From the NCBI GenBank assembly GCA_963843975.1, contig CAWJMG010000001.1, forward strand, positions 270,001 to 302,000: a DNA stretch of 32,000 nt. The letters run 5' to 3'. Position numbers and translations under genes: made by a program. Shown piece by piece: positions 4,913 to 32,000 of this stretch. This DNA comes from an uncultured Actinomycetes bacterium. Lineage in GTDB: Bacteria > Actinomycetota > Actinomycetes > S36-B12 > CAIYMF01. The notes beneath the pieces are model-generated. The model made no database searches and was not told the DNA's origin. It was given only the letters and a program-made list of their open reading frames with translations. Position 1 is the stretch's first letter; each line of letters opens with the position of its first letter.

Positions 4913-4989
4913 GCCCACCGGAGGTCAACGCTCGGCAAACGGCGGCGCGCGCCGCGAGTCGACCCGTGGCCGTGGTGCAGAGTGTGGGT

Positions 4990-6977: not shown

Positions 6978-6987
6978 CGCGACGCCG

Positions 6988-7006
6988 CACCCGCACTCAG
7001 CGGGTG
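6988..7006. terminator. Short hairpin between convergent genes (possible bidirectional terminator)
   Basis: CACCCGC-ACTCA-GCGGGTG: a 7-bp perfect stem with a 5-nt loop. It spans the ferredoxin stop codon, 10 nt after the response-regulator stop. The stem is weak and there is no U-tract. Confidence 0.3.
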
Positions 7007-7209
7007 GCGACCTTGACCAGGGTGAGCGCCAGCCGCGGGCAGGCTGCGACGGCCCGCTTGGCGTGCTTTCGGTCGTCGCCGTGCATGACCTCGGCGTCGA
7101 TGATCGGGTAGCCCCACTCGTCGAGGTGGATGCGCTCGGGCAGCAGCTGGGCGCAGGTGCCGAAGCCGTCGCACTTGATGCGGTCGACCGTGATGACCTT
7201 GCCGCTCAT
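6997..7209 (-). CDS. Small ferredoxin (single Fe-S cluster type)
   Basis: The last 70 aa of ORF 6997..7572: MSGKVITVDRIKCDGFGTCAQLLPERIHLDEWGYPIIDAEV...AVAACPRLAL. The CxxGxC...CP pattern is typical of actinobacterial 3Fe/4Fe ferredoxins. The ATG at 7209 overlaps the upstream stop (ATGA). Confidence 0.8.
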   Translation of the reverse strand: MSGKVITVDRIKCDGFGTCAQLLPERIHLDEWGYPIIDAEVMHGDDRKHAKRAVAACPRLALTLVKVATR

Positions 7210-8543: not shown

Positions 8544-9100
8544 CGCCGTGCCTGCGTCTCCACGAGGGTGACTCCCGGGTCGTCGGAGCGGTCAGGGGTG
8601 AAGAAGCGGGCGACGAACGCGAGCGCGACGGTGGTGACCATCGTGATCGCGACGAGCCGGGTGAGGGTCTTGTCGGTGCCGACGCCGAGCGAGTGCACGA
8701 TGGCCGAGGCCCAGAGCGCGTACGCCGTCCAGTGGATCGCCTTCCACGCGCGCTGCGGCATGCGGTGGCGCAGGAGGCTCGTGATGATCACGGCGATGAG
8801 CAGGTCGAGGGCGACGGTGCCGAGTCCGACCCACAACGTCTGGTACGACGTCTGGCCCGGGAGGAACACGTCGACCCAGCTGATCGGCACGTAGCCGTCG
8901 ATCACGGTCGTCGCGATGTGCACGACGAGGAACACGACGGACAGCAGCGAGACGTTGCGGTGCACGAGGGTCACGACCGATTCCGGCCAGCGCTCGTGGG
9001 CCCAGCCCTTGGTCGTCGCGATGCCGAGCACCGTGACGACCGTCAGGAGGACGAGGGCGACCTCGCCTGTCGCGCGGGTCGCAAGCCAGAACACGCTCAT
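8540..9100 (-). CDS. Ferric-reductase-like (MsrQ/NOX-type) transmembrane domain protein
   Basis: MSVFWLATRATGEVALVLLTVV... 186 aa, about 5-6 TM helices, with conserved His residues in helices (LVHRNVSLL, VVHIATTV, IHWTAYALWASAIVHSLG). ATGA overlaps at both ends. Confidence 0.78.
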   Translation of the reverse strand: MSVFWLATRATGEVALVLLTVVTVLGIATTKGWAHERWPESVVTLVHRNVSLLSVVFLVVHIATTVIDGYVPISWVDVFLPGQTSYQTLWVGLGTVALDLLIAVIITSLLRHRMPQRAWKAIHWTAYALWASAIVHSLGVGTDKTLTRLVAITMVTTVALAFVARFFTPDRSDDPGVTLVETQARR

Positions 9101-10042
9101 CGGGCGTCCGCCTCTCGGGCAGAGGTGCCGTCGTCGGCCGGCCAGCCTCCGAGTCGGACGAGGCGGCCGTCCACCGACACGAGGCGGCACGGAAGTCCAC
9201 TCTCCTCCAACCACGGCACCGCATGCTCACCGAGCACGATGGCGGCGGTGGTGGCGGTGTTCGCGGTGAGGCAGTCGCCGGCGGCGACGCTGACCGTGCG
9301 CCACACGGGGGTCACCGGGCGCCAGGTCGTGGGGTCCACGAGGTGGGCCAGGCTCGATCCGTCGCGACCGGTGCGGGCGCGCACGGTGGTGCTCGAGGTG
9401 GCGAGGCCGCCGCCGGACACGCTGACGGCCTGCGCGACGGGGTTGGCTGTGTCGACGCCCTCGCGGTGGTCGTCGGTGACGACGACGAGCCAGCCGCCGT
9501 GCGGCGCCGGCCCCGAGGTGGCGATGTCGCCGCCGAGGGAGACGAGCGCGCCGCCCTCGACGACACCGGCGGCGAGCTCGGCCGCGCGGTCCGCAGCCCA
9601 GGCCTTCGCCGTCGCGCCGAGGTCGAGACGCAGGCCGGCCGGCAGCCACACCGTGTGCACGCCGTCCTCCTCCACCAGGATCACGTCGCGGTGGCTGCCG
9701 GTGCGGGTGATGGTCGCGTTGAACGACGGCGCGCTGATGGTGACGCCGCCGACGGTCGGGTCGACGGTGCCCTCGGTGAGCCTCCGCGGCGTCGAGCGCG
9801 ACCCGCAGCAGCTGCGCGAGGAGCGCGCTGATGACGACGGGTGCGCCCTCGGCGGCGTTCACCGCGGTGATCTCGCTGTCCGCACGCCACGTGCTGGCGG
9901 CGACGTCGACCTCGGCGAGCCAGCGGACGACCTCGCTCACCGCGAGGTCGTGGCTGCCGTGGCCCTGCGTGGTCACCGTCGCGCGTCCACCCCAGAGGTC
10001 GAACGTGGAGGTGCGCATGTCGAGCTCGGCCATGACCGTCAT
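9097..10042 (-). pseudogene. apbE: FAD:protein FMN transferase (ApbE family), split by a +1 frame change
   Basis: The N-terminal 87 aa are in the frame of ORF 9227..10042: ...TFDLWGGRATV...STWRADSEITAVNAAEGAPVVISALLAQLLRVALDAAEA. The rest is in the frame of ORF 9097..9684: TEGTVDPTVGG...LDLGATAKAWAADRAA...LVSLGGDIA...GGLATSS...AHLVDPTTWRP...CLTANTATTAA. The switch is at about 9781. Confidence 0.8.
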
Positions 10043-10043
10043 G

Positions 10044-10418
10044 TCACGATCCGCCGGAGGTGGCGGCGGCCTTCGGCGCAGCCGGGGCGGCGACGGGGGC
10101 CGCGGGCGGCGGCGTGAGCTTCGGTGCGGCCGGGGTCTTCGTGGTGGTGACGGTCGATGCCGTCTTCTTCGCAGCTGCGGCCTTCTTGGCGGCGGCCGTG
10201 GCCTTCGCGGTGGGGGTCACGGTCGAGGTGGAGCCGGCGGCGACAGTGGTGGTGCCGGCGGCCGGGGCCTGCTTGTCGACGGCCTGGGCGGCGCTGACCA
10301 TCCCGAAGCCGAGGCCGAACGCTCCGGCGGCTCCGATGACGGCGGTGCCGACGGTGACGGCCGTGACGCGGCGCAGGACGGCGTCGCGGTGGTCAGGGGT
10401 CCAAGGGCGGTGCTGCAT
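10044..10418 (-). CDS. Secreted low-complexity Ala/Thr/Pro/Lys-rich protein, first gene of the redox operon
   Basis: The ATG at 10418 is preceded by GGAGGA with a 4-nt spacer. MQHRPWTPDHRDAVLRRVTAVTVGTAVIGAAGAFGLGFGMVSAAQA looks like a signal peptide with an AQA cleavage site. About 79 aa of low-complexity sequence follow, ending ...AAATSGGS. The stop lies 1 nt before the ApbE start. Confidence 0.55.
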   Translation of the reverse strand: MQHRPWTPDHRDAVLRRVTAVTVGTAVIGAAGAFGLGFGMVSAAQAVDKQAPAAGTTTVAAGSTSTVTPTAKATAAAKKAAAAKKTASTVTTTKTPAAPKLTPPPAAPVAAPAAPKAAATSGGS

Positions 10419-10603
10419 GGTGTCCTCCGTTGTCGGCCCCCGGTGGAGGGGGTACGACCAGGACACCGCAGCGGCGGTAGCGGCTTGGTCAGCCGCCGGT
10501 CAACGGATTGCCAACACCGGCTGAGTGTTCGTACAGGAACGCCGGGGGCACTGCCTCACGCTCACCCGCACGGCCCAACCGCCAGCGGAGAGCGAGGGGG
10601 CGA

Positions 10604-10894
10604 CTACGCGCAGTCGAGGCAGATGTCGACGCCGGGCTTGGCGCGACGGGTGCGGTGCTGCACGAGGAAGCACTTGTCGCAGCGGAACTCGTCCGCGAGC
10701 TGCGGCACCACGGCGACAGCGAGCACCTCGCCGGAGAGATCGGCGCCCGGGAGCTCGAGATCCTCGAGCAGGTTCGCCTCGTCCTCGACCAGCGTCTCGG
10801 TCGTCGGAGCCTGAGCGCGCAGTGCGTCAAGGCTCGCGGTCTGCTCTGCCGCCGTCGCCTCCGCGTCGCGCGGTGCGTCGTAGTCGGTAGCCAC
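10604..10894 (-). CDS. DUF4193 family protein
   Basis: MATDYDAPRD...LELPGADLSGEVLAVAVVPQLADEFRCDKCFLVQHRTRRAKPGVDICLDCA. This is the characteristic N-terminus, acidic middle and C-terminal CxxC...CxxC of actinobacterial DUF4193 proteins. Confidence 0.85.
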   Translation of the reverse strand: MATDYDAPRDAEATAAEQTASLDALRAQAPTTETLVEDEANLLEDLELPGADLSGEVLAVAVVPQLADEFRCDKCFLVQHRTRRAKPGVDICLDCA

Positions 10895-11051
10895 CGTTCC
10901 TCCTGCTCCCCCACACGTGCCGTCAACCCGGGTGCTCCGGAGGTGCCGAGGGTACGCCAGAGTTGGACCTCTCGCTCACGCGGGTCATGACCTGGACATG
11001 AACGCTCGGCGAAGCCGTCGGACGCGGGGCCTCCCCCTCTAGGGTCGGAGC

Positions 11052-12782
11052 ATGGCCTCGACGCCGGATCGACCGCTGCGCTCCTCCGAGTGGTACGGCG
11101 GCGACGACCGCAACGCGTACATCCACCGGGCCTGGATGCGGCGAGGACTTCCGTCCGACGCGTTCAGCGGACGGCCGCACATCGCGATCGCCAACACGGC
11201 GTCCGACCTGACCCCGTGCAACGCGCACCTGTCCGAGGTGGCGCGCTCGGTGCGGGACGGCGTGCACGAGGCGGGCGGCATCCCGCTCGAGCTGCCGGTC
11301 GTGTCGCTCGGCGAGACGCAGGTGCGGCCGACGGCGATGCTCTGGCGCAACATGGCCGCGATGGCGATCGAGGAGATGCTGCGCGCCAACCCGATCGACG
11401 GCGTGGTGCTGCTCGGCGGCTGCGACAAGACGATCCCGTCGCTGCTCATGGCGGCGGCGTCGGTGGACCTCCCCGCAGTCGTGGTGCCCGGCGGCCCGAT
11501 GATCACCGGCACCTTCCGCGGCACGCCGCTCGGCTGCGGCACCGACGTGTGGAGGCTGTCCGAGGAGGTCCGCGCAGGTGGCATGACCGCCGACGACTTC
11601 GCGCGGTCGGAGTCGTCGATGATCCGTTCGCGCGGCCACTGCAACACGATGGGCACGGCGTCCACGATGGGGCTGCTCGCCGAGGCGCTCGGCACGGTCG
11701 TCCCGGGGATCGCAGGGACTCCGGCACCCGACTCGCGGCTGCTCGAGGCGGCGCACGCGACGGGGAAGCTCGCGGTGTCGCTCGTGCACGACCAGCGCAC
11801 GCCGTCGGCCTTCCTCACGAAGGCCTCGTTCCACAACGCCATCGTGGCGCTCGCCGCGATCGGCGGGTCGTCCAACGCCGTCGTGCACCTGCTCGCGATC
11901 GCGGGCCGTCTCGACATCGACTTCACCCTCGACGACGTCGACCGCATCGGCGCAGGGGTGCCGTGCGTGGTCGACCTGCAGCCCGCCGGCCGTTTCCTCA
12001 TGGACGACCTGCACCGCGCAGGCGGTCTGCTCGCGGTGCTCGCCGAGGTGCGCGACCTGCTCGACCCGAGTGCGCTCACGGTGACCGGCGAGCCGCTCGT
12101 GTCGTACCTCGACGACGCCCAGGTGTGGGACGCCGAGGTCATCAGGCCGCGCTCCGCTCCTCTCGTGGCCGATGCCGGCATGGCCGTGCTGCGCGGCAAC
12201 CTCGCGCCGGACGGCGCGATCCTGAAGCCGGCCGCGGCCTCTTCGCACCTGCTGCAGCACCGCGGCCGCGCCCTCGTCTTCGACTCGATCGAGGACTTCC
12301 ACGCGCGCATCGACGACCCCGATCTCGACGTCGACGCCGACACCGTGCTGGTGCTGCGTGGCTGCGGCCCACGCGGCTACCCCGGCATGCCCGAGGTCGC
12401 CAACATGCCGCTGCCGACCAAGCTGCTCGAGCAGGGCGTGCGCGACATGGTGCGGGTGTGCGACGGCCGCATGAGCGGGACGGCGTACGGCACGGTCGTG
12501 CTGCACGTGGCCCCCGAGGCGGCCGCGGGCGGGCCGCTGGCGCGCATCCGCACCGGCGACGTGATCGTGCTCGACGTCGCGGGTCGGCGACTCGACGTCG
12601 AGCTGAGCGGCGACGAGCTGGCCGCGCGCGAGCCATCAGCAGTGGCCGCTGCGTCGTACGCGAACCCCGCGCGCGGGTGGGAGCGGCTGTACGTCGACCA
12701 CGTGCTGCAGGCCGACTCCGGTGCCGACCTCGACTTCCTGCGCGGCTCCAGCGGCTCGAAGGTGAGCCGCGAGTCGCACTGA
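11052..12782 (+). CDS. IlvD/Edd-family dehydratase (dihydroxy-acid / sugar-acid dehydratase)
   Basis: 576-aa ORF. Motifs: RPHIAIANTASDLTPCNAHL, LLGGCDKTIPSLLMAAAS, CNTMGTASTM, SSNAVVHLLAIAGR, DGRMSGTAYG. Closer to the arabonate/xylonate-type branch than to canonical IlvD, but substrate cannot be assigned from sequence alone. Confidence 0.9.
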   Translation: MASTPDRPLRSSEWYGGDDRNAYIHRAWMRRGLPSDAFSGRPHIAIANTASDLTPCNAHLSEVARSVRDGVHEAGGIPLELPVVSLGETQVRPTAMLWRNMAAMAIEEMLRANPIDGVVLLGGCDKTIPSLLMAAASVDLPAVVVPGGPMITGTFRGTPLGCGTDVWRLSEEVRAGGMTADDFARSESSMIRSRGHCNTMGTASTMGLLAEALGTVVPGIAGTPAPDSRLLEAAHATGKLAVSLVHDQRTPSAFLTKASFHNAIVALAAIGGSSNAVVHLLAIAGRLDIDFTLDDVDRIGAGVPCVVDLQPAGRFLMDDLHRAGGLLAVLAEVRDLLDPSALTVTGEPLVSYLDDAQVWDAEVIRPRSAPLVADAGMAVLRGNLAPDGAILKPAAASSHLLQHRGRALVFDSIEDFHARIDDPDLDVDADTVLVLRGCGPRGYPGMPEVANMPLPTKLLEQGVRDMVRVCDGRMSGTAYGTVVLHVAPEAAAGGPLARIRTGDVIVLDVAGRRLDVELSGDELAAREPSAVAAASYANPARGWERLYVDHVLQADSGADLDFLRGSSGSKVSRESH

Positions 12783-12786
12783 CAGA

Positions 12787-12828
12787 ACGACGGCGGCCCC
12801 GGGGATCGCTCCCCGGGGCCGCCGTCGT
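12787..12828. terminator. Strong bidirectional intrinsic-terminator-like hairpin between convergent genes
   Basis: ACGACGGCGGCCCCGGGGA-TCGC-TCCCCGGGGCCGCCGTCGT: a 19-bp perfect GC-rich stem with a 4-nt loop. It sits in the 56-bp gap between the stops at 12782 (+) and 12839 (-). Confidence 0.8.
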
Positions 12829-12838
12829 CACTGCAGGG

Positions 12839-15598
12839 TCAGCGGCGGACCTTCAGCACCGCCCACTGGTAGCGCGTCGCCAGCTCGTCACCGACGAAGA
12901 GGTCGGTGCGGTAGAGCGGGCCCACGAGCATCGGCGTGCCGGTGCCGGTGGTGCTCTTGAGGTTGTACTGCCAGTAGCCGCCGCCGCGAACGCGGCTGTC
13001 ACGGACCCAGCGCATCTGCGTCGAGCCGGCCGCGGTGGCCGGACCGGCGCTGTCGAGGCCCACCACGATCGAGACGTCGGCCGCCGGGTTGTTGACGTAC
13101 GACTGGGTGCAGACGTCGTAGATCGTCGCCTTCACCGGCACCGTGCGACCGGCCCGGATCGTGTTGACGTCGATGTCGCCGGCCTCGGAGTCGTGCAGGT
13201 CGCCGCGGAAGTCGATCGAGTACGTCTGCCGCACCGAGGCCGCGTTGGTCGACGCCTTCGACACCGCGGTGCCGTCTGCCGCCGTCACCGTGACGACCGG
13301 CGTGTAGATGCCGGGCGCCGCGTAGCGGTGGGTGAGGTTGGGCTGCGCGCCCTCGGTCGACGTGGAGTACGCCGTCGTGGTGCCGTCGCCCCAGGCCACG
13401 TTCACCGACCACGAGCCACCGGTCTGGCCGAGGTCGTCGAACGAGATCCCCGAGAGGGTCACCCGCGCCCGGCAGTCGACCGCGCCGCTGGCGAACGACG
13501 GCGCCGCGACGACCGGGAGGACGACGTCGCTGCGGCTCGCGAGGATCTCGATCCGCAGGTCCTGCGACGCCGGGGTGTCGGCCACGTCGTACGCCGTCGC
13601 CGGCGTCGGGTGCTCGGCGAGGAGGAAGTCCTCGAACGCCTTCTGCTCGCCGAGGATGTCGGCCAGCGTGATGCCGACGGACGTCGCGGCTGCGGCCGTG
13701 GTGAAGTCCAGCGCCTCGTCGACGGGGGCCGACAGCGTGCCGTCGGTCTTGAGGAAGCGGAAGCTGTCGGCGTTCGCCTTGATCGGGTAGGCGTCCCCGC
13801 CGTTGGCGGTGAAGCTCAGGGAGATCATGTGGATCACGGCCGGCGCGTTCGGGTTGACCACGCCGTCCTGCACGATCGTGGCGATGCGCTGGCCGCTCTC
13901 GTCGTACAGCGCGGCGCTGCGCAGCTTCTGCCCCGCCGGCTGGGTCGAGTCGTACGAGAAGCGGAGGCCGCCGATCTGCGGGTAGCCGCCGTTCTGGTTG
14001 CTCGGACCGGTCGAGAGGCCGGACGCGAAGTTCAGGATGTTCGCCAGGCCCTGCGGGGTCGTGTCGAACACCATGAGCTTGTTGTCGAAGCGCAGCGCGT
14101 TCTCGACGTCGAGCTGGGAGATGGCACCGGCCGGCTTGCTGGCCAGCGGGTTGGCGATGTTGGGGATCTTGCCGCCGTCCTCGTCGATCGAGCCGATCGA
14201 GGCACGGATGCCGCCGCCGTTCTTCAGCGACACGACGTGCTGGCCGCTGAACGCGGCCTCGGCCACCAGGGCGTTGGCGTCGGCCGTGAGCGAGCCGAGG
14301 TTGACCTCCTGGGTGCGGCCGAAGACGCGGTCGCCCTCGAGGTAGACGTTGCTGTAGCCGTAGAGCGTGCCGTCCTTGGCCGCGACCACGTCGCCGATCG
14401 CCTTGGTGATGGCTCGGACCTTCGCGCCGGTGACGCTGCCCGCGATGATCGTGGCGCCGGAGTCGCTGGTGGCGTACGCCGCCTGCAGGCTCGCCTCGGT
14501 GGCGGCGTACGCGCCGTTGACCACCGGGTCGAGCTCGGCGGTGTTGATGACGCCCGCGGCGTCGAACGGAACCACGAGACGGCCGAGGTAGCTGAACTCG
14601 GTGTCGGTCGTCACGACCAGCGTGGGTGCGCCGTCGTTGCCGGCGGTGACGTAGGGGTAGGTCTCGGAGAACACGGCGTCGTGGCCGTTGAACGCCACGG
14701 CGGTGTCGTTCGCGTCGCCCATGCGCTCGTGACCGCCTCCGGCGACCATGACGTCGACGCCGTGCAGCAGCGGCGCGAGCGCGCGGTTGCGGTCGAGGGT
14801 GTCGAGCTGGTCGACCATGACCACCTTGTTGACGCCGGTGGCCGTGAGCGCGTCGACGGTGGTCTGGATGATGCCCGCGAGCTCCGGGATCTTGACCGCG
14901 TCGCTCGTCGAGGCGACACCGCTGACCGTGGTGCCGTTGGGCGAGGTCTTGCTGAGCAGCTCGTACGTCGTCGCGCCGACGATGCCGATCTTCTCGCCGT
15001 TGACCGTCTTCACGGCGTACGGCGCGAACTTGCCCTTGATCGTGGTGACCTCCTTGCCCGCGAAGGCGTTGGTGGAGGTGCCGCCGACCGTCGCGTCGGA
15101 GAGGCCTCGCAGCGAGCTGTCGCCGGCGAAGCTGAGGTTGCTCGTGATGAACGGGAACTGCGCACCAGGCCAGGCGCCCGATGCCGCGACGGCGCCGGAC
15201 ACGACCGGCGAGCCGAGGTCGTACTCGTGGTTGCCGAGCGCCGAGGCGTCGACGCCCAGCGCGTTCATGATCGCGACGTCCGGGCGCCCGAGCGCGGTCG
15301 AGCCGATGCCCGGGATCGCGTTGAGCGAGGGGTCGGCACCGGCGACGAGCCACGGGCCGGGGATCCAGGTGTCGCCCTCGGCCAGCGTGATCGTGTTCGG
15401 GTACTCGCTCCGGAACTGGTCGACCAGCGCGCCGAGCGCCGGGGCCGTGTCGAGGCCGAGCAGGCCCGACTCCCCGTAGAAGTGCAGGATCTGCAGCTGA
15501 TAGGTGGTCGGTGCGGCCGCCGCCGGCGACAGTGGTGCGACGGCGAGCGCCGCGGCCGTGGCGGCTGCGGCGGTCGCTGCGATGACGCGCTTCCTCAT
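12839..15598 (-). CDS. Secreted bifunctional metallophosphatase / 5'-nucleotidase with a C-terminal PKD domain
   Basis: I prefer the ATG at 15598 (MRKRVIAATAAAATAAALAVAPLSPAAAAP, a signal peptide), with GGGGAG 7 nt upstream. Metallophosphatase motifs: ILHFYGES, GDTWIPG, GNHEYD, and a GGGHERMG region. A 5'-nucleotidase C-terminal domain follows, then a PKD-like segment WGDGTTTAY...THRYAAPGIYTPVVTVTAADGT. Confidence 0.9.
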   Translation of the reverse strand: MRKRVIAATAAAATAAALAVAPLSPAAAAPTTYQLQILHFYGESGLLGLDTAPALGALVDQFRSEYPNTITLAEGDTWIPGPWLVAGADPSLNAIPGIGSTALGRPDVAIMNALGVDASALGNHEYDLGSPVVSGAVAASGAWPGAQFPFITSNLSFAGDSSLRGLSDATVGGTSTNAFAGKEVTTIKGKFAPYAVKTVNGEKIGIVGATTYELLSKTSPNGTTVSGVASTSDAVKIPELAGIIQTTVDALTATGVNKVVMVDQLDTLDRNRALAPLLHGVDVMVAGGGHERMGDANDTAVAFNGHDAVFSETYPYVTAGNDGAPTLVVTTDTEFSYLGRLVVPFDAAGVINTAELDPVVNGAYAATEASLQAAYATSDSGATIIAGSVTGAKVRAITKAIGDVVAAKDGTLYGYSNVYLEGDRVFGRTQEVNLGSLTADANALVAEAAFSGQHVVSLKNGGGIRASIGSIDEDGGKIPNIANPLASKPAGAISQLDVENALRFDNKLMVFDTTPQGLANILNFASGLSTGPSNQNGGYPQIGGLRFSYDSTQPAGQKLRSAALYDESGQRIATIVQDGVVNPNAPAVIHMISLSFTANGGDAYPIKANADSFRFLKTDGTLSAPVDEALDFTTAAAATSVGITLADILGEQKAFEDFLLAEHPTPATAYDVADTPASQDLRIEILASRSDVVLPVVAAPSFASGAVDCRARVTLSGISFDDLGQTGGSWSVNVAWGDGTTTAYSTSTEGAQPNLTHRYAAPGIYTPVVTVTAADGTAVSKASTNAASVRQTYSIDFRGDLHDSEAGDIDVNTIRAGRTVPVKATIYDVCTQSYVNNPAADVSIVVGLDSAGPATAAGSTQMRWVRDSRVRGGGYWQYNLKSTTGTGTPMLVGPLYRTDLFVGDELATRYQWAVLKVRR

Positions 15599-15810
15599 GT
15601 GGATGCTCCCCATTCCCGCACCGGCGAGAAGCCGCACTGGCGACGCTGCCGGTGACCCCTGACGTGGCGCAGCGGTGCTGCGCGGCTCACGCCCCATGAC
15701 GTTCCTAGGTGCGGGGCAGGGCGCCGTCAAGCGGATCCCCGGAAGATCAGGGCCGGGTCACCGAGAGTCCCGCGCGGCAGACCGACAGAGCCGACATACC
15801 GGACGCGATG

Positions 15811-17217
15811 TCACTCCCCGGAGTCGAGGGCATCCGCCAGCAGAGCGATGGTCTGGTCGAGGTCGTCGGTGGTCGTGCGCGGGTTGATCGTGCAGAGTCG
15901 GAAGACCGTACGGCCGCGCAGGACGGTCGGGCTGACTGCCGCGAAGCCGTCCTGGGTCACCGCAGCCGCCGCACGCACGTGGTCGGCATCGGTGCGCGTC
16001 GGCGACGCGAACGTGATGATGCCGATCTGCGCGGGGGTCACGACCTCCAGGCGCGGGTGGGCCTCGACGACTCCCTGCGCGTGCTCGGCGAGCGCCACGC
16101 CGCGGTCGATCGCGTCGACGATCGTGCCCAGGCCGTACGTGCGGAACGTGAGCCACAGCTTCGCCGCACGGGTACGCCGGGTGAGCTCGAGGCCACGGTT
16201 GTGGAAGTTGACCGCGCCGTCCTGCGAGTCGCGCAGGTACTCCGGGTGCATCGCGAACGTGCGCTCGAGGGCACCGGGCTCGCGGACGATCAGGCATGCG
16301 ACGTCGTAGGGCTGGAACAGCCACTTGTGCGGGTCGAGCACGAACGAGTCGGCGAGCTCGAGGCCCGCGATGCCATGGCGTCCGACAGAGAACGCGGCCG
16401 GTCCGCCGTAGGCGCCGTCGACGTGCAGCCACATTCCGTGCGCCCCTGCCACGGCTGCGATCGCGGGGAGGTCGTCGATCGCGCCGGTGTTGGTGGTGCC
16501 CGCGGTGGCGACGACGACGGCCGGTGTGCGCCCGGCGGCGACGTCGGCCTCCACCGCCGCACGCAGCACCTCGGCGTCGAGCCGGAAGCCGTCGTCGGTC
16601 GTCAGCAGACGCACCTGGTCTGCGGGCCAGCCCATGGCGAGCGCGCCGCGCTTGATCGACGAGTGGGTCTGGTCGGACAGGTAGAGCACGCCGTCGCCGC
16701 GCTCGGCGCGCGCCGTGATGAGGGCGGTGGTGCTCGCCATCGAGCCGCCCGAGAGCAGGATCCCGGCCGCGCCCTCGGGGAGGCCGAGCGCCTCGCGGAT
16801 CCAGTCGAGCACGACGAGCTCGAGCGTGGCGGTGCCCGAGCCCCCACCCCACGACGACGCGATCGCCTGCATGCCGGTCGCGAGCCAGTCACCCAGCACC
16901 GCGGCGTACGACGACGGGCCGGGCACGCGGGCGAAGTAGCGCGGGTGGTCGCCGTGCTGCTGGTGCTCGAGGGCGACGTCGGCGAGAAGCGCGAGGTCGG
17001 CCTCGATGTCCCCGGCCGCGGTGGGTAGCGGGCCGCCGAGGGCGGCGCGCAGCGCGTCGTGGTCGGCGACGGTGAGGGCGGGGCGGTCGCCAAGGGTCGT
17101 CAGGTGCTCGATCGTTCGGTCGACCACCCAGTGGCCGAGCGCGCGCAGCCGCTCGGGGTCGACGTCGAGGACGTCGGGCGGCACGTCGAGCCCAGGGCGC
17201 TGCGGGTCGTCGGCCAT
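15811..17217 (-). CDS. Pyridoxal-phosphate-dependent (group II) amino-acid decarboxylase
   Basis: 468-aa ORF. Motifs: SGGSMASTTAL, HVDGAYGG, and the PLP-lysine motif DPHKWLFQPYD. The ATG overlaps the upstream stop (ATGA at 17217). Confidence 0.9.
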   Translation of the reverse strand: MADDPQRPGLDVPPDVLDVDPERLRALGHWVVDRTIEHLTTLGDRPALTVADHDALRAALGGPLPTAAGDIEADLALLADVALEHQQHGDHPRYFARVPGPSSYAAVLGDWLATGMQAIASSWGGGSGTATLELVVLDWIREALGLPEGAAGILLSGGSMASTTALITARAERGDGVLYLSDQTHSSIKRGALAMGWPADQVRLLTTDDGFRLDAEVLRAAVEADVAAGRTPAVVVATAGTTNTGAIDDLPAIAAVAGAHGMWLHVDGAYGGPAAFSVGRHGIAGLELADSFVLDPHKWLFQPYDVACLIVREPGALERTFAMHPEYLRDSQDGAVNFHNRGLELTRRTRAAKLWLTFRTYGLGTIVDAIDRGVALAEHAQGVVEAHPRLEVVTPAQIGIITFASPTRTDADHVRAAAAVTQDGFAAVSPTVLRGRTVFRLCTINPRTTTDDLDQTIALLADALDSGE

Positions 17218-24916: not shown

Positions 24917-27640
24917 CTACCCGCCGATCAGGCCGAGCTCGCTTCCCCTGCGTACGGCGGCACGACGACTCGTCACGCCGAGCTTGGTGTAGATGCTCTT
25001 GGTGTGGGTGCGGACGGTGTTGAGCGACAGGAACAGGTGCCGCGCGATCTCCGGCCCGTCGAGGTCGGAGGCGAGCAGCCGCAGCACCTCGAGCTCGCGC
25101 GGGCTGAGCGGGTCGATCAGCTGCGCCGTGTCGTTCGTGATCGCGGTCTCTGGTGCGCTGCTGGGAACGGCGCGCAGGAGAGTCGCGGCGTACGGCGACG
25201 AGCCAGGGATCGCTGCGAGCGCGGTGAGCAGCGGCACGATCGCGCTGCCGTGTCGGGTGAACGGGCGGACGACCGACTCGGGCTCGGCAAGCGCGACCGC
25301 CCTTGCGATGGCTTCTGAGGCGGCCCTGTCGTCGGGCGCCGCCAGGGCCTGCAGCACCTCGACGTCGATGACCGTGGCGTCGCGGCCCCCTGCGGTCGCG
25401 ACGTCGAGCAGGCGCTGCAGAAGATCGCGGGAGTCCGTGAGGGCCTGTGCGTCGCCACTGGTGCGATCCCGTGCGAGGAGCACCTCGGCGAAGGTGACGT
25501 GCTCGTACTCGCGGAGGTACGCCACGTCGTCCTGCGCCGTCAGCCCGCGGTCGCGTGCCCAGCGCTCGGCTGCGTCGAGGTCGCCGAGGCGCAGGTGCAG
25601 CCGGGCGGCGGCTGCGTGCAGCGGGCGCACGTTCGGCGAGAAGTCGCCGAGGTAGACCTGCTCCGCCTCGGTCACGAGGTCGAGAGCGCCGACCAGGTCG
25701 CCCTCGGCCTCGGCGAGGAGGGCGGCGACCGCCCGCGAGCGTCCGGCGTAGCGGGGCAGAGCGAGCTCCTCGCCGAACGACCTCGCGGTGTCGAGGTGCG
25801 TGCGCGCGGTGACGAGGTCGCCGCGCTCGAGCGCGAGCTCGGCGAGGCCCACGTGGATGTCGGCGATGCCGCGAGCCGGTGAGCCCGTGGAGTCGCCGGC
25901 GAGCGCGAGCGCGTCGGCCAGCACTCTGCCCGCGTCGCGCCGGCGGCCTTGCGCTGCACGGATCTCGGCGAGGGTGAGATAGCAGCCGATCGCGTCCGAG
26001 AGGTGCTGCGCGCGGCGGAGGCCGGCGACGCAGACGTCGTAGCGCGCGTAGGCGTCGTCGAGCTCCCCGACCGCCCAGTGCGCGAGGCCTGAGAGGCCGG
26101 AGGCACCCGACCGAACGACGTCATCGCTCTCCGGCGCGGCCTCGATCGCGAGGGCGGCGTGGCGGTGGGTGCCGGCGAGGTCGCCAGACACGAGCGCCAG
26201 GCCTGCGCGGTAGAGCTCGATCGCCCCAGGGATGCGCGCGATCTCGGTCTCGTCGATCGCCGTGAGGCCGGTGCCGCTGTCAGGTCCGTCCGCGATCCGA
26301 CGCTCGATCGCAGGCAGCTGCGCGGCGAGCGCGTCGAGCCTCGGGCCGACCGCGGCAAACTCGTTGCACGACATGAGCGCGCCGACGAACGTCACGGCCA
26401 GCACCGGGCGATGGCGAAGGACATCGTCGGGGAAGTCGTCGGACCATCGGCGCAGCACGGCCTCGTGGCGCTGCCGCCTCAGATCGGGCGTGGCCGTCTC
26501 GACGACGTCGGCCGCGAGCTCGAGCTCGCCCGCCGCGACCGCGTGCCGCACCGCGCCCACGGGCTCACGCGCATCGGCGTACCAGCGGCTCGCGCGCGCG
26601 TGCAGTGCATTGACCTCGGCGACGGTGTTCGTCGAGCGCAGGTGCGCGCGGAGGACGTCGGCGAACAGGTGGTGGTAGCGGTACCACCGCCGCTCGTCGT
26701 CGAGCGGTATGACGAAGAGATTCGCACGGTCGAGAGAGTCGAGAACGGTTGCGCTGCCTGAGGTCTCCAGCACGGCGTCGCAGAGGTCGCCGCAGAGCCG
26801 GTCGAGCATCGACGTGCGCACGAGGAAGTCGCGGACGTCGCCGCTCTGGCGCGAGAGCACCTCGTCGACGAGGTAGTCGACGACGAAGCGGTCGGTGCCG
26901 GCGAACCCAGCCACGAACCCGCCGACGTCGTCGCGCCCCTGCATCGACAGCGCCGCGAGCTGCAGGGCCGCCGCCCAGCCCTCGGTACGAGCCTCGAGCG
27001 CAGCGACGTCGTCCGGGCCCAGGGTGAGTCCGTGCACGTCGGTGAGGTACGCCGCGGCCTCGTCGGCCGTGAAGCGCAGGTCGCGCGCGCGGAGCTCGAG
27101 CAGCTCGCCCCGGGCGCGGAGCCTCGACAGCGGCAGCTGCGGATCCGCGCGCGTGCCGACGACGACGTGCAGGTTGGGCGGCCGGTGGTCGAGCACGTAG
27201 GTCATGCCCTCGGCCACCTCCGCCCCGTCGGCGAGGTGGTAGTCGTCGAGCACGAGCGTGATGCGCGTGGGCGCCTCGGCGAGGTCGTTGAGCACCGAGG
27301 TGAGGAGCGCGGGTGTCGCAGGCTGACCCGCTTCGAGCAACGGGAGCACGCCGGCGCCGACTCCCGGCACGGCCGTGCCGAGAGCGGCGACGACGTACTG
27401 CCAGAACATCGAGGGTTGGCTGTCGCCCTCGTCGAGCGACACCCACGCGACGGCCCGGTCAGTGGTTCCTGCGAGCCAGGTGCTGAGGATGGTCGTCTTG
27501 CCGAACCCGGGAGCGGCCGAGACGAGAGTGAGCGCAATGCGCTCATCGGCGTCGAGACGGGCCGTCAGCCGGTCGCGAGGGACCAGCGCGGGACGCGGCG
27601 CCGGGATGTGGAGCTTGGTCGAGACGAGCGTGCCCGCCAT
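24917..27640 (-). CDS. Large ATP-binding LuxR-family regulator (LAL / MalT-like: AAA ATPase + TPR-like repeats + LuxR HTH)
   Basis: 907-aa ORF. N-terminus STKLHIPAPRPALVPRDRL. Walker A SAAPGFGKTT and Walker B LVLDDYH. A long helical-repeat middle. C-terminal LSPRELEVLRLLASDLDGPEIARHLFLSLNTVRTHTKSIYTKLGV. GGGGGAGG RBS. Confidence 0.92.
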   Translation of the reverse strand: MAGTLVSTKLHIPAPRPALVPRDRLTARLDADERIALTLVSAAPGFGKTTILSTWLAGTTDRAVAWVSLDEGDSQPSMFWQYVVAALGTAVPGVGAGVLPLLEAGQPATPALLTSVLNDLAEAPTRITLVLDDYHLADGAEVAEGMTYVLDHRPPNLHVVVGTRADPQLPLSRLRARGELLELRARDLRFTADEAAAYLTDVHGLTLGPDDVAALEARTEGWAAALQLAALSMQGRDDVGGFVAGFAGTDRFVVDYLVDEVLSRQSGDVRDFLVRTSMLDRLCGDLCDAVLETSGSATVLDSLDRANLFVIPLDDERRWYRYHHLFADVLRAHLRSTNTVAEVNALHARASRWYADAREPVGAVRHAVAAGELELAADVVETATPDLRRQRHEAVLRRWSDDFPDDVLRHRPVLAVTFVGALMSCNEFAAVGPRLDALAAQLPAIERRIADGPDSGTGLTAIDETEIARIPGAIELYRAGLALVSGDLAGTHRHAALAIEAAPESDDVVRSGASGLSGLAHWAVGELDDAYARYDVCVAGLRRAQHLSDAIGCYLTLAEIRAAQGRRRDAGRVLADALALAGDSTGSPARGIADIHVGLAELALERGDLVTARTHLDTARSFGEELALPRYAGRSRAVAALLAEAEGDLVGALDLVTEAEQVYLGDFSPNVRPLHAAAARLHLRLGDLDAAERWARDRGLTAQDDVAYLREYEHVTFAEVLLARDRTSGDAQALTDSRDLLQRLLDVATAGGRDATVIDVEVLQALAAPDDRAASEAIARAVALAEPESVVRPFTRHGSAIVPLLTALAAIPGSSPYAATLLRAVPSSAPETAITNDTAQLIDPLSPRELEVLRLLASDLDGPEIARHLFLSLNTVRTHTKSIYTKLGVTSRRAAVRRGSELGLIGG

Positions 27641-27664: not shown

Positions 27665-27739
27665 CCCGTCAGCGACGACCCTAGTGGCACATGCCCGTCA
27701 GCTTCTCGAGCCAAGCTTTGCCGGGCCCAGCGCTGACGG
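27665..27739. repeat. Three copies of CCGTCAGC (two direct, one inverted) in the LuxR / CHAT-gene intergenic region
   Basis: CCCGTCAGC at 27665-27673 and 27694-27702. The inverted copy GCTGACGG is at 27732-27739. Coordinates were read by eye and may be off by 1. Confidence 0.4.
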
Positions 27740-27918
27740 TGTCGCTTGCGGACCAGAGCGCCGTGACTTGGATCCCGCGCTGGGCAGTGCATGCTTGGTT
27801 AGCCGGTCGGTTCGATCTTGTGCAGTGAGTGTGAACTTGCGTGCCGATTGTGCCCCGCGGGCTGAACGGCAAGCGAAGATGGGGTTGACGACGAACAGCG
27901 CCAAGTACAGGGGGGCAC

Positions 27919-30366
27919 GTGACCGACAAGATCACGCGCGATGCAGTGCTCGAGCTTCGTCAGAAGTGGTTCAACGACCTCGTGGCCCTCACGTGTGACG
28001 GCACGCGGCTATCTGAATCGACGGAACGAACTCCGTTGATGGCGACGGCGCTGGCGAGTCTCACCATCCTCGGAGGGCACCTGCTCGGCGCACAGGACGA
28101 TGCACTCGTACTTCCTAACGTCAGTGTGGAGGATGTTGGGAAGGAGATCGGGCGGTGGCGAACGGGCAGGGGGCGCCCGCGGTTGGCCCGCCATTGGGAG
28201 GAAGGTTGGCTAAGCCTGTTCCGCTACGCCCGGGACGAGAGCTTGTTGACGTCTGACCTTCTCGCCGCCTTCGCGTCTAGTCCGTGCGGCGAAGCTGCAG
28301 GTGGCCGCACCCAGCATGACTTGCGCGGAGCTTCCGATGCCACGCTCCTTCGTGAGTTCATCGAGCGCATCCTGGCCGCGAACACTGGGCGCGCTTGGGA
28401 TCAACCCATGCACAACGGTCTCGACCTTCAGCCCAATCACCTCAGTGTGGTCGCAGCTGGTGTGGACCTTGATCTGGCACTGGCGCTCAAGCTGTTCACG
28501 CCGATAGAGATCCTGGCAACACTGCCAGATGAGGACGAAGACCTGTTGGCGGACTCATGGATGATGTCGTCGCGCGGTTACCTGCGCGTCTATCTCACAG
28601 CGGTTGGCGAATGGCCGGGTTCGGCACCTGGCGGCGTGCCGGAACACGTGGCGGACTGGGTATTGAAGCGAGACGGCCGCCAGGGCAACTGCACAACCGG
28701 CTTCGTACCCGGTTGGTTTGCCACCGCTGAATCGGAGGCAGATCTAGATGCCATCCGTAGGCTTGCGTTCGCCGGCGGAGTGGCACTGGAACTGAGTCCT
28801 TCGCGAGCGGCGATCTCTCTCCTGACGCCGGATGCCGATGGGCAGCCCACGAACCTTGCCCCCACGTATTTCGTCCAACGCACGACCGAACAACTCCAAG
28901 ATCTTGCCGTCTTGGTCGCCATGGGCTGCGTCACGCTGCACCGCTTCTACATCGACGCCAATCGCCAACTGAGCTACGACGGGAGCCACTTGATCCGGCT
29001 CCCGGAAGGCGCGCTACATGAACTAAGGGATTGGATCGGTCCCACGTTTCAGGGTTGGACCATGGACTCGTTCATGAGCGACCTTCCTGACTCCAACGAA
29101 GAAGCGCGACTCCGGGCCGTAACAGGAGAGCGCAGACGGTTTGAACTTGCGCGCCTCGTGAGGGCGAGACTCGACGGGCAACTACGCCCAGAACTGTCCT
29201 CGGCGCTGGGCGACTACCTCTCCGCCCTTAGGCGAGCCGGAGCAACCGGAGGCCTCGGCGGCGCATCTCGGCCCGAGACGGCAGAACTCGAGACAACCAG
29301 GGGCACCCTTCGGTCGCTGGTGAATGGCTCACGGTCTATAGGGGTTGACCAACTCGATGTCGACGTCTTGGGCGCCGAGCGTGCCTACCTGCAGTTCGAA
29401 GCTACGCAATCTGGCATCCAGTGGGTGAGTGCAAGCTGGAAGCATGGGAACACCACGGTTCATCGCGTCTTCGAATACCGCTCGGCCGGCCGGCCCCGAC
29501 CCTGGAGGCTCTCGGACCAGTCCGCGTGGCTCGCAGAATCACTGGGGGACCTCCAATCTCTTGCCCTAGAGGGCATCCGGCACGTGGTGCTAAGCCCTTC
29601 TTCCGAAGACTACGGGGCCCCGTACCACCAAGCCCTGCTCAGCTTGGGGTTTGAGACGGCAAGCTACGCACCAAGTCTCGATCTCCTGCGTCCGGTGGAC
29701 CGCCCACTCAAGAGTGGTCAACCGTCTCGCAACTACCTCGCCGGCTGGCCGTCTGAAGGTGACACCTTCTTGCCAGGAGTTGCAGCCGAACTGGAGGCCC
29801 TTGAGGACGACCTCGGCTGTCGCGTCGAGACTGACCTGCGCTCGCTGAGCGGCCCCTTCCGCACGATCCACCTCACCGGACACGCTCGCGCTGGATCGCA
29901 TGAAGCATCAACGGCGATCGATCTTGGGCCTGCCGGGCGTCTAACTGCGGTCGACCTCTTGGAGCGGGCGGACCTGGCCGGATCGGGCATCGCGTTGCTC
30001 TGTGCATGCTCGACGGGCGAGGGCGTCTATTGGCCCATGCAACTACAGGACAACACGCCCCTCGACGTCTGCTTCCTTGCCGTTGGCGTGCAAACCGTAG
30101 TGAGCACTTGCCGGCCTGTAGGCGATGTAAGCGCGCTGTTGTTTGCTCTGGAGTTCCATCACGAGGTGCTATCGGGCGTCAACCCATGGTCTGCCTACAG
30201 CAGGGCGCGTCACGTACTGCGAGCGCCCTACGCCTCCTCAGTAGCACCAGCGATCGCTAAGCGCCTAGATGGCTTGCTGCCGGATTGGAGGGAGCGATCC
30301 CTTCAGTCAGACGAGGACGACTGGCTCGCGTTCCGCATTGCTGGTCGTCACTGGGCTGAGCGTTAG
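27919..30366 (+). CDS. CHAT-domain (caspase-like cysteine protease) protein with a large uncharacterised N-terminal region
   Basis: 815-aa ORF. The GTG start has GGGGGG 3-4 nt upstream. Residues ~485-770 follow the CHAT pattern: IRHVVLSPSSEDYGAPYHQALL, then TIHLTGHARAGS..STAIDLGPAGRLTAVDLL (His655, nt 29881-29883), then GIALLCACSTGEG (Cys697, nt 30007-30009), then FLAVGVQTVVSTCRPVGDVSALLFALEFHHEVL. Residues 1-480 match nothing I recognise. G+C is lower and codons are atypical. Confidence 0.85.
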   Translation: MTDKITRDAVLELRQKWFNDLVALTCDGTRLSESTERTPLMATALASLTILGGHLLGAQDDALVLPNVSVEDVGKEIGRWRTGRGRPRLARHWEEGWLSLFRYARDESLLTSDLLAAFASSPCGEAAGGRTQHDLRGASDATLLREFIERILAANTGRAWDQPMHNGLDLQPNHLSVVAAGVDLDLALALKLFTPIEILATLPDEDEDLLADSWMMSSRGYLRVYLTAVGEWPGSAPGGVPEHVADWVLKRDGRQGNCTTGFVPGWFATAESEADLDAIRRLAFAGGVALELSPSRAAISLLTPDADGQPTNLAPTYFVQRTTEQLQDLAVLVAMGCVTLHRFYIDANRQLSYDGSHLIRLPEGALHELRDWIGPTFQGWTMDSFMSDLPDSNEEARLRAVTGERRRFELARLVRARLDGQLRPELSSALGDYLSALRRAGATGGLGGASRPETAELETTRGTLRSLVNGSRSIGVDQLDVDVLGAERAYLQFEATQSGIQWVSASWKHGNTTVHRVFEYRSAGRPRPWRLSDQSAWLAESLGDLQSLALEGIRHVVLSPSSEDYGAPYHQALLSLGFETASYAPSLDLLRPVDRPLKSGQPSRNYLAGWPSEGDTFLPGVAAELEALEDDLGCRVETDLRSLSGPFRTIHLTGHARAGSHEASTAIDLGPAGRLTAVDLLERADLAGSGIALLCACSTGEGVYWPMQLQDNTPLDVCFLAVGVQTVVSTCRPVGDVSALLFALEFHHEVLSGVNPWSAYSRARHVLRAPYASSVAPAIAKRLDGLLPDWRERSLQSDEDDWLAFRIAGRHWAER

Positions 30367-30899
30367 GCTGCCTCAGGTTGGGGCAGGGACCGAAGGACGA
30401 TGACCCCGGACCTTCCACGGCAATGGTGCCCTCCAGGCCCGGACAATCGACGTCTCCGCAAGCCGTGGTCAGGCATTCTCCCAACTGCCGTCGGCGTGAT
30501 CTCCCTGGCGGCCAGGAACGGCGATGGCCAACCGATCACCCCTCCAGCGGAGTTTCAGTCCAGGTCCGGGACCACGGGCAACGGACGAACGAACCACTAC
30601 CGCCCGCGTCATCGCGCCACCAATGCCGAATGAGCCTCGGGTAGCGCAGAGCACGAGCGTAGGGCGGCTTCGCCGCGGGGGCTCGAGGCGACGCGGCGGT
30701 CCTCCCGGTGCAAGTGGGACCTCCACACACCGCGGCAGAATGAATGGCTCGGCAGGAATCTGCGGTGCCATTCCCGGAACAGGTGATCGGGTGTGTGGAG
30801 GTGCCGCGACGAGGCCGTCAGCGGCGTCGCTTTGCGCCGAGGGATCCGACCCCGAGGAAGACTCCTCCCGAATTCGAGGGACCTCGCCGACCGCGGTCA

Positions 30900-32000
30900 C
30901 GTCCCACCGCGTGGTGTAACTCGAGCCGGTCGTGATCGGCTTCGCGGTGGTGCTTGTCTGACTATGACGCCATGAGTTCGGGGACCGCCACCTCCTTGGT
31001 CGAGTCGAGGGTGGCGGCGCCGATCTGGGCCATCGAGTTCTCGGACAGGTAGCGGCGGTCGGAGACCTGCCATTCGTCGTGGGTCTCGATCAGGACCGCG
31101 CCGGCCAGGCGCAGCAGCGCCTTCGGGTTCGGGAAGACACCGACGACGTCGGTGCGGCGTTTGATCTCCTTGTTCACCCGCTCCAACGGGTTGGTCGACC
31201 AGATCTTCTTCCAGTGCGCGGGCGGGAAGTCCGCGAACGCGGTCACGTCGTCAGCGGCCTCGCGGAGCATCGCCTCGACCTTGGGGAACTGGCGGCCGAG
31301 CATGGTGGCGATGACGTCGAGCTGGTCGCGGACGTGCTCGGCGTCGGGTTGGGCGAAGATCGTGCGGACCGCGGCTGCGACCATCTCCTGCGACGCCTTG
31401 GGGACCTGGGCCAGGACGTTGCGCAGGAAGTGGACCCGGCACCGCTGCCAGGACGACCCGATCATCACCGCGGCGATAGCCGCCTTGAGGCCGGTGTGGG
31501 CGTCGGAGATGACCAGCTTCACCCCGTGCAGGCCGCGGGCCTTCAGCGAGCGCAGGAACGCGGTCCAGAACGCTCCCTCTTCGCTGTCGCCGACGGCGAA
31601 GCCCAGGACTTCCCTTCTCCCGTCAGCACTCACCCCGGTGGCGACCACGACGGCTTGGGACGCGACCCGCGACCCCTTGCCGCCCTTCCCACCACCGATG
31701 CGGGCCTTGCAGTAGGTCGCGTCGAGGAACACGTAGGGGAACTCGTCCTCGGACAGGTCCCGGTCAGCGAACGCTGCGACCTCGGTGTCGAGGTCCGCGC
31801 AGATCCTCGACACCTCGGACTTGGAGATCCCGGTGTCCGCACCGAGTGCCTTGACCAGGTCGTCGACCTTGCGCACGCTCGTGCCGGTGACGTAGGCCTC
31901 CATCACGACCGCGAACAGCGCCTGATCGATCCGGCGGCGCCGCTCGAGCAGCGACGGGAAGAACGACCCGGCCCGCAGCTTCGGGAGCGCCAGCTCGACG
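30900..32000 (-). mobile_element. IS256-family insertion sequence (partial; left boundary approximate, other end outside the window)
   Basis: Inferred from the transposase gene. IS256-type elements usually end within ~100 bp of the transposase stop. The terminal inverted repeat cannot be identified without the other end. Confidence 0.55.
30962..32000 (-). CDS. IS256-family (Transposase_mut) transposase, partial (N-terminus beyond the window end)
   Basis: ORF 30962..31906 plus an in-frame extension to the window edge (...LPKLRAGSFFPSLLERRRRIDQALFAVVMEAYVTGTSVRKVDDL). Family motifs: FLDATYCKAR, VISDAHTGLKAAI, WQRCRVHFLRNVL, STNPLERVNKEIKRRTDVVGVFPN. Confidence 0.92.
   Translation of the reverse strand, partial: VELALPKLRAGSFFPSLLERRRRIDQALFAVVMEAYVTGTSVRKVDDLVKALGADTGISKSEVSRICADLDTEVAAFADRDLSEDEFPYVFLDATYCKARIGGGKGGKGSRVASQAVVVATGVSADGRREVLGFAVGDSEEGAFWTAFLRSLKARGLHGVKLVISDAHTGLKAAIAAVMIGSSWQRCRVHFLRNVLAQVPKASQEMVAAAVRTIFAQPDAEHVRDQLDVIATMLGRQFPKVEAMLREAADDVTAFADFPPAHWKKIWSTNPLERVNKEIKRRTDVVGVFPNPKALLRLAGAVLIETHDEWQVSDRRYLSENSMAQIGAATLDSTKEVAVPELMAS

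Follow-up and report, generated by a model that had tools for sequence, protein, structure and literature searches.

A CHAT protease joined to an unrecognised N-terminal module: a candidate single-gene immune sensor-protease of Actinomycetota

What a bacterium might gain from a protease that carries a large and unfamiliar region on the same chain is the question raised by a gene near the right-hand end of a 32,000-nucleotide stretch of DNA from an uncultured Actinomycetes bacterium (contig CAWJMG010000001.1, positions 270,001 to 302,000; hereafter the window). The gene, an 815-aa open reading frame (ORF) on the plus strand at 27919-30366, stop codon included, ends in a CHAT domain, a caspase-like protease of the separase/Csx29 type. 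A preliminary description made from the letters of the sequence had proposed it as a candidate single-gene conflict or defence module, and that proposal is supported at each point on which it was exposed: the CHAT match, the catalytic dyad, the N-terminus and the neighbourhoods of the homologues. There is good reason to regard the gene as a candidate for a new immune sensor-protease encoded by a single gene, and its architecture is unusual.

The C-terminal ~330 aa are established as a predicted CHAT (separase/Csx29-type, caspase-like) cysteine protease with an intact His655/Cys697 dyad, and membership of the clan is secure because sequence, catalytic Cys and fold all agree. The Pfam CHAT model (PF12770) matches residues 580-805 with 51.3 bits and E 1.5e-13, well above the cut-off of 24 bits, a significant hit that bears out the domain first read from the sequence; the C-terminal 335 aa alone score 54.9 bits, and all 25 aligned relatives match the same model. 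The motifs HLTGHA (residues 651-656) and LLCACSTGEG (693-702) place the two catalytic residues exactly where they had been numbered, and both are invariant across the 25-sequence family alignment, along with H651, G654, D736 and H747. C697 lies in the conserved (S/A)-A-C-x-(S/T)-G context of the CHAT catalytic Cys, and profile alignment sets it on C907 of the CHAT domain of DdvA from Myxococcus xanthus (PDB 8ROT), the only sequence match of the family profile in the PDB (E 1e-4); C907 is the catalytic Cys of DdvA, where it is paired with H862 (PMC11506125). H655 sits in an H-x-x-G-H motif directly past strand E647-654 of the structural model, 42 residues ahead of C697, the same spacing as in the catalytic pair H585/C627 of TPR-CHAT (PMC9729208); the assignment of this His is based on invariance, motif and spacing, and not on a residue-by-residue alignment to a characterised His.

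The fold points the same way. Foldseek comparison of the full-length model with the PDB returned Csx29/TPR-CHAT (E 1e-10), separase (5e-6 to 1e-4), DdvA (8e-6), SAVED-CHAT (2e-5; 8tl0) and gingipain (1e-3), all with a probability of 1.00. Two other resemblances in this half were set aside. A SUMO/ubiquitin-like match of the family profile over residues 483-530, the first three long CHAT strands, was insignificant (E 0.08), and matches of the full model to Moloney murine leukaemia virus reverse transcriptase were gone with the N-terminal model, so that they lie in the CHAT part.

The region ahead of the protease is where the protein becomes new. In the model the CHAT fold begins at about residue 487-488, leaving a novel part of ~486 aa, close to the ~480 aa first estimated. 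The full-length AlphaFold2 model, built from just 25 sequences, has a predicted local distance difference test score (pLDDT) of 88.8 and a predicted template modelling score (pTM) of 0.86, and a separate model of the N-terminal part has a pLDDT of 84.5. Searches of the N-terminal ~486 aa against Pfam, NCBIfam, PADLOC and PHROGs gave no match, nor did PDB sequence profile searches with the whole N-terminus; the alpha/beta domain alone drew nothing in the PDB profile search even at E<=10, and the best Foldseek values for the N-terminal model were E 0.46 against the PDB and 0.22 against the viral structures of BFVD. The earlier impression that no known domain is present there thus survives every one of these searches. 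Pfam, NCBIfam and PADLOC likewise revealed no nucleoside triphosphatase (NTPase) family in the window protein or its relatives, and the window protein shows no transmembrane segment and no evident hydrophobic or amphipathic stretch of the pore-forming type.

Several specific identities for this region were considered and rejected. A TPR or Csx29-like N-terminus is contradicted by the lack of any TPR family in the 25 members and of any Foldseek match between the N-terminal model and Csx29 or TPR proteins. Very weak Foldseek matches to lambda exonuclease, YqaJ, UL24 and EndoV (E ~1, probability <0.15) raised the idea that the alpha/beta domain is a PD-(D/E)xK nuclease; it has no conserved acidic or Lys catalytic residues. 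A duplicated beta-alpha-beta-beta (SHS2/GyrI-like) origin for the same domain is unsupported, as hhalign of its halves gave no signal, and a match to DUF5558 in a single member (E 0.07-0.13, below the cut-off) is put down to chance.

In the model this N-terminus has three parts: an all-alpha domain, an alpha/beta domain and a linker of long helices. The charged stretch EEARLRAV...QLRPE, picked out as helical in the preliminary description, corresponds to residues 394-425 and is helical in the model too. Conserved positions in aa 1-250 are H54, G57, W80, R81, G83, H174, E197 and also W232, and in the alpha/beta domain R254 and the motif G261-x-V-P-G-W; the polar residues H54, R81 and E197 are invariant in the family alignment, H174 and R254 nearly so. 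Mean pairwise identity is 27% in the helical domain, 32% in the alpha/beta domain, 22% in the linker (the lowest) and 35% in the CHAT domain, and judged by the alignment the N-terminus is a conserved module rather than a hypervariable one. The linker has a pLDDT of ~84-93 in the full-length model, with dips at about residues 440-450 and 470-480, and falls to 52-85 when the CHAT domain is left out, suggesting that it packs on that domain. Because of this loss of confidence and the high pTM, the models suggest that N-terminus and protease form one packed unit. Every domain is acidic (pI ~5.1; family mean net charge -34), which argues against nucleic-acid binding by the N-terminus and makes it unlikely.

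The description of the protein as an orphan did not stand, since it holds only for a word-index search of 5.8 billion proteins, in which just the query itself was recovered. An exhaustive HMMER search with residues 1-520 across 1.84 billion cluster representatives, where each hit is a cluster at 50% identity, revealed a rare family of at least 34 proteins, of which 27 reach E<=1e-10, with 38% identity to the top hit other than the query; the figure of 34 is a lower bound because the query is one divergent member. Nearly all hits are 770-830 aa long and colinear across the whole N-terminus, and the window protein is itself full-length and colinear with its relatives at 33-38% identity. The short hits are fragments, their cluster mates measuring ~800 aa or the CHAT domain still being present, and among the 34 hits the N-terminal module was never found without CHAT or fused to another partner. 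The word-index search with the family alignment gave only the query and unrelated CHAT proteins. A locus search across GTDB representative genomes with the single protein found nothing, and a locus search with a 10-sequence alignment added two new full-length loci and returned Mycetocola again. All named members are Actinomycetota and fall into ten genera (Promicromonospora, Nocardioides, Rhodococcus, Mycetocola, Arthrobacter, Brevibacterium, Curtobacterium, Microbacterium, Cryobacterium and Agromyces), where they are annotated just as "CHAT domain-containing" or "hypothetical".

What such a gene is for can be approached through the company that it keeps, and neighbourhoods were compared at 13 loci, the window and 12 others. 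In Promicromonospora the CHAT gene stands between a methyl-directed restriction endonuclease and a type I restriction-modification (R-M) system; in Nocardioides it is divergent from a Gabija GajA/GajB pair, and in a metagenomic member it is convergent with a different Gabija pair. Another metagenomic member adjoins a GmrSD-type type IV enzyme, and a further one (L015) adjoins mad7 of the MADS system and a NERD-kinase. The Rhodococcus gene (L010, CP063783.1) adjoins the gene of a 1312-aa Mrr_cat-nSTAND protein; GmrSD, HicB, a transposase and a NACHT protein are encoded in the vicinity. Other copies lie among transfer genes. The Mycetocola copy is found between an integrase/excisionase pair and a GmrSD_N/HEPN gene with a TrwC relaxase, the Cryobacterium copy has a TrwC relaxase 2.5 kb away and DUF4365 and DUF4238 genes near it, and the protein P0009, present at three metagenomic loci, is encoded inside a conjugative element, between a type IV secretion system (T4SS) coupling protein/DUF4913 and a relaxase.

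In raw counts, a recognised defence system lies within 10 kb at 7/13 loci and hallmark genes of mobile elements are present at 5/13, and the GC content of the CHAT gene is lower than that of its flanks at all 13. An all-against-all BLASTP comparison of ORFs of at least 45 aa within 4 kb of the gene found no conserved neighbour, small partner ORFs included, the sole similarity across loci being a weak match between two GajA genes. The gene thus moves on its own, carried as a GC-poor passenger in the defence islands and the conjugative or integrative elements of Actinomycetota. The homologues do not occupy conserved housekeeping contexts; their settings are variable islands and mobile elements. 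On this point the island context claimed for the gene is upheld by its relatives, while within the window it is thin, just a drop in GC content and an IS256 element, and the neighbourhoods of the homologues are the decisive evidence for context.

Some of these neighbours are of interest in their own right. The Gabija adjacency occurs in two distantly related members (L007 6621-9381 and L009 3948-7018, both on the minus strand) with different GajA subfamilies and opposite orientations, and could be a recurrent island association or chance. The 1312-aa protein of the Rhodococcus locus (12505-16443, minus strand) combines a faint Mrr_cat match with nSTAND_NTPase5, has no PADLOC model and may be an undescribed STAND-nuclease defence gene. 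At L015 a 1813-aa neighbour beside mad7 and the NERD-kinase (9457-14898, minus strand) has no Pfam match, and at L018 a 1287-aa neighbour (2801-6664, minus strand) has neither a Pfam nor a PADLOC match. In L003 and L004, from Joint Genome Institute metagenomes, an apparently complete actinobacterial conjugative element spans ~600-15800, with genes for an M23 peptidase, the T4SS coupling protein, DUF4913, the relaxase and a NikA-like protein; the CHAT gene is carried as cargo, with the transfer operon on one side and the relaxase on the other, in a layout that is near-identical in three samples.

The reading to which these lines lead is that the gene encodes a cytoplasmic, stand-alone, autoinhibited sensor-protease for defence against phages or mobile elements, to which a rough probability of 0.5 is given. 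In TPR-CHAT, separase and DdvA the resting dyad stays out of alignment until a signal acts on it allosterically (PMC9729208, PMC11506125). By analogy with these three, the N-terminal module would at rest be packed on the CHAT domain and keep the protease off. A cue derived from infection, likelier a protein or small molecule than a nucleic acid given the acidity of every domain, would bind the module and re-order the linker and active site, possibly with oligomerisation, and the active protease would then cut conserved host or invader proteins encoded elsewhere, or itself; such targets are suggested because no substrate gene is linked. Cleavage would halt the infected cell or the invader, as in aborted infection. 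The more particular claim, held tentatively and at rather less than even odds, is that the ~486-aa module is a new fold class that senses an infection cue and allosterically switches a separase-like protease, giving a new single-gene immune system confined to Actinomycetota whose substrates are host or phage proteins encoded elsewhere, or else its own chain, with no dedicated neighbouring effector.

Comparison with systems already described shows what is familiar in this proposal. Structurally the protease part is matched best by TPR-CHAT/Csx29 of type III-E CRISPR (Craspase), whose size and layout are also similar, a large regulatory region at the N-terminus being joined through a linker to CHAT at the C-terminus. 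The two have the same His-Cys spacing, and the allosteric activation of TPR-CHAT/Csx29 through its linker has been adopted here as the model. TPR-CHAT/Csx29 differs in its TPR repeats, of which the 25 members have none, and in its linked Cas7-11/gRAMP, Csx30 and Csx31, none of which, nor any CRISPR context, occurs at the 13 loci, so that the activator of the window protein cannot be a cis-encoded complex guided by CRISPR RNA. In SAVED-CHAT (linked to type III-B CRISPR or to the cyclic oligonucleotide-based antiphage signalling system CBASS) and the type IV Thoeris protease, likewise, a sensor on the same chain activates a CHAT or caspase-like protease of bacterial immunity, and both are able to act on proteins encoded elsewhere. 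SAVED-CHAT has its SAVED domain and a cyclase, whereas the window family lacks SAVED, and its 13 loci show neither a cyclase nor a Cas10 or TIR partner. Were the cue a small molecule, it would have to come from an unlinked producer.

Separase too is a single chain, in which a caspase-like protease comes after a helical region at the N-terminus, and its fold matches are significant, but it is far larger, has an ARM/HEAT-like superhelix, is controlled by securin and phosphorylation, serves the cell cycle and bears no sequence relation to the window protein outside the CHAT domain. DdvA, a TPR-CHAT anti-sigma factor, shares the aligned catalytic Cys; it is transmembrane, periplasmic and dimeric, with a TPR region and an extracytoplasmic function (ECF) sigma partner, whereas the window protein has no transmembrane segment, anti-sigma part or sigma neighbour. 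STAND, NACHT and Avs sensor-proteases carry a P-loop NTPase in the same chain, which the window protein does not. The protease-effector modules with gasdermin, Pepco, EACC1, metallo-beta-lactamase (MBL) or alpha/beta-hydrolase effectors likewise pair a sensor with a caspase-like protease in one chain, reside in defence islands and are common in Actinobacteria (PMC12642450). In those modules the protease cuts an adjacent effector, whereas the 13 loci have no conserved neighbour, and their known sensors (STAND, Avs, WD40) find no match in the window N-terminus. The protein thus lacks the defining features of each system compared. By analogy, its mode of action would be most like that of TPR-CHAT/Csx29 and SAVED-CHAT, with sensor and CHAT protease in one chain; what is new is the N-terminal module and the absence of a linked effector, the class of CHAT proteases in bacterial immunity being known.

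Several findings weigh against a defence role. Three of the loci (L008, L012 and L018) have no recognised defence system nearby, and the phage, plasmid and IMG/VR collections yielded zero family members. No model of PADLOC-DB 2.0, a database that includes candidate systems, matches, and the family is therefore not a recognised defence system. Nor does the N-terminus vary more than the protease, their identities being 27-32% and 35%, which sets it apart from many fast-evolving immune sensors. Autoinhibition, trigger and substrates, moreover, are all features that we infer.

The same mobility that marks the family allows another account, in which the protease serves the mobile element itself as a factor for anti-defence, for competition with or exclusion of other elements, or for addiction, for example by degrading the immune proteins of a recipient after transfer, excluding rivals or killing cells that have lost the element. 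The member flanked by genes for the T4SS coupling protein/DUF4913 on one side and for relaxase/NikA on the other is what one would look for in such a case, as are the Cryobacterium member close to its TrwC relaxase, the member between an integrase and a TrwC relaxase, the IS256 element beside the window gene and a GC content below that of the flanks at every locus. Yet most chromosomal copies directly adjoin bona fide defence systems (Gabija twice, R-M, GmrSD and MADS), and adjacency of that sort is the classic signature of a defence gene. Known anti-defence proteins are mostly small, and 815 aa with a conserved regulatory module of ~490 aa is atypical of them; the phage and plasmid collections, as noted, hold no members. 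Service to the mobile element is accordingly considered unlikely.

A role in signalling has a lower probability still. Here the protease would cut one specific, unlinked regulator, and its output would be a transcriptional or stress response instead of cell arrest. Its nearest structural relatives, Csx29, separase and DdvA, are all site-specific regulatory proteases, and a moderately conserved N-terminus with invariant polar residues would fit one fixed partner or ligand; cleavage of a regulator has precedents in Csx29 acting on Csx30 and CalpL on CalpT and has been proposed for DdvA. Against this stand the 13 loci, where no substrate, sigma or anti-sigma gene is conserved beside the CHAT gene and the contexts are variable islands and not regulons, and the spread of a mobile gene over ten genera, which would require a substrate that is universally present.

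Given a similarly low chance is the suggestion that the N-terminal module is a latent effector, instead of or besides a sensor, freed when CHAT cleaves its own chain in cis or in trans. Such a protein would amount to a protease-effector module (gasdermin, Pepco, EACC1, MBL) joined into one chain and would account for the absence of a separate effector gene at the 13 loci, known defence proteases usually having an adjacent one (PMC12642450). The invariant N-terminal His, Arg and Glu could form an active site, and the least-conserved linker segments of lower pLDDT, at ~440-450 and ~470-480, could hold a cleavage site. However, Foldseek against the PDB and BFVD and the PDB profiles recognised no enzymatic or pore-forming fold in the N-terminus, no pore-type segment is evident, no cleavage motif was identified, and the suggestion is reached purely by reasoning.

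As to the gene in its own locus, the ORF is real. GTG 27919 is the earliest start codon downstream of an in-frame TGA (27886-27888), and the start should be correct to within a few codons because the conserved R14 and W17 of the 25-sequence alignment sit just downstream. GC content in the window runs at 0.70-0.77 and drops from 0.70-0.75 to 0.60-0.65 at ~27700; the CHAT gene itself has a GC content of 0.63 and, at third codon positions (GC3), 0.69, against GC3 values of 0.90-0.95 in resident genes, while its pattern across the three positions (GC1/GC2/GC3) is of the coding type. The gene is horizontally acquired. The low-GC segment starts just past the start of a divergent MalT/LuxR-type regulator and ends at ~30924 at an IS256-family element, whose transposase matches Transposase_mut (E 1.3e-98) and whose DNA is 77-78% identical to annotated IS256/IS1245 transposase genes. 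An independent short-read contig of the same DNA (L001) stops exactly at 30924, and this break in assembly identifies the position as a repeat boundary; the acquired segment has its right end beyond the window. Searches for tRNAs, Rfam families, flanking direct repeats, promoters and terminators turned up nothing that would delimit the island, and the other 27 kb of the window are given to ordinary metabolism. That the gene is a decaying or functionless hitch-hiker beside the insertion sequence is very improbable, for although the IS256 element and ~560 bp of non-coding DNA flank it, a consensus scan around it found neither a sigma-70-type promoter nor an intrinsic terminator (a scan that is uninformative in high-GC actinobacteria) and the window copy departs from the family consensus at the near-invariant L51, D252, F284, F318 and F343, the 815-codon ORF is intact, of coding-type composition and colinear with its relatives over its full length, keeps all catalytic and invariant family residues and gives a highly confident model. 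The coordinates of the features are collected in Table 1.

Table 1. Features mapped in the right-hand part of the window, with the basis for each.
Feature	Position	Strand	Basis or remark
GC-poor foreign segment, ~3.2 kb, carrying the CHAT gene	27700-30924		GC drop, GC3, end of short-read contig
GGGGGG run resembling a ribosome-binding site	27910-27915	+	3 nt upstream of GTG; read from sequence
CHAT gene: novel N-terminal module and CHAT protease	27919-30366	+	ORF, Pfam, AlphaFold2 model
All-alpha domain, aa 1-250	27919-28668	+	Model secondary structure and conservation; no database match
Alpha/beta domain, aa 251-362	28669-29004	+	Two helices, ~seven strands; model and conservation
Long-helix linker, aa 363-486	29005-29376	+	Helices H363-373 to H452-470 in model
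Charged stretch, aa 394-425	29098-29193	+	Inside long-helix linker
Predicted CHAT protease domain (caspase-like, clan CD), aa 487-815	29377-30363	+	PF12770, 51-55 bits; Foldseek
His655 codon, predicted catalytic His, motif H651-L-T-G-H655-A	29881-29883	+	Invariant 25/25; spacing to Cys
Cys697 codon, predicted catalytic Cys, motif C-A-C697-S-T-G	30007-30009	+	Invariant; aligns with DdvA C907
Non-coding-looking tail of foreign segment	30367-30924		GC 0.65-0.68; ORFs without Pfam match
IS256-family insertion sequence	30925-32000	-	Transposase gene from 30962 to past 32000, leaving the window

The divergent regulator (24917-27640, minus strand) is a 907-aa protein of the LAL/MalT type that combines an AAA_22-like NTPase with a TPR_MalT region and a GerE/LuxR helix-turn-helix; a gap of 278 bp separates it from the CHAT gene. 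A functional link between the two was rejected: this MalT-type STAND regulator is a separate gene, and its adjacency looks coincidental since its GC3 of 0.90 is host-like and none of the 12 other loci has an equivalent. The ~560 bp between the CHAT stop codon and the insertion sequence contain no convincing ORF, Pfam or Rfam match or terminator, show no similarity to the neighbours of other family members, and may be a remnant of the donor element. Farther away, a SIR2-family protein (452-1378, plus strand; E 3e-40), 26 kb from the CHAT gene and among hydrolase genes, is likely to be a deacetylase with a housekeeping role. A 963-aa protein (12842-15730, minus strand) in which a PKD domain occurs along with a 5'-nucleotidase C-terminal domain is probably a secreted or surface nucleotidase unrelated to the CHAT finding.

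Among the outputs of bacterial immunity, caspase-like proteases are coming to be seen as a major one, with examples in Craspase, SAVED-CHAT, type IV Thoeris and the modules that use gasdermin, Pepco or EACC1. To our knowledge, each characterised immune protease of this class has a recognisable sensor or a linked substrate, and the family described here has neither. The confident model and the clear catalytic mutants (H655A, C697A) make the sensor-protease reading directly testable. If the gene is indeed a defence gene, it would add a new sensor fold and raise the question of what a stand-alone immune protease cleaves, and it would also add a system from a phylum, Actinomycetota, in which screens that rely on E. 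coli and Bacillus have left phage defences under-sampled.

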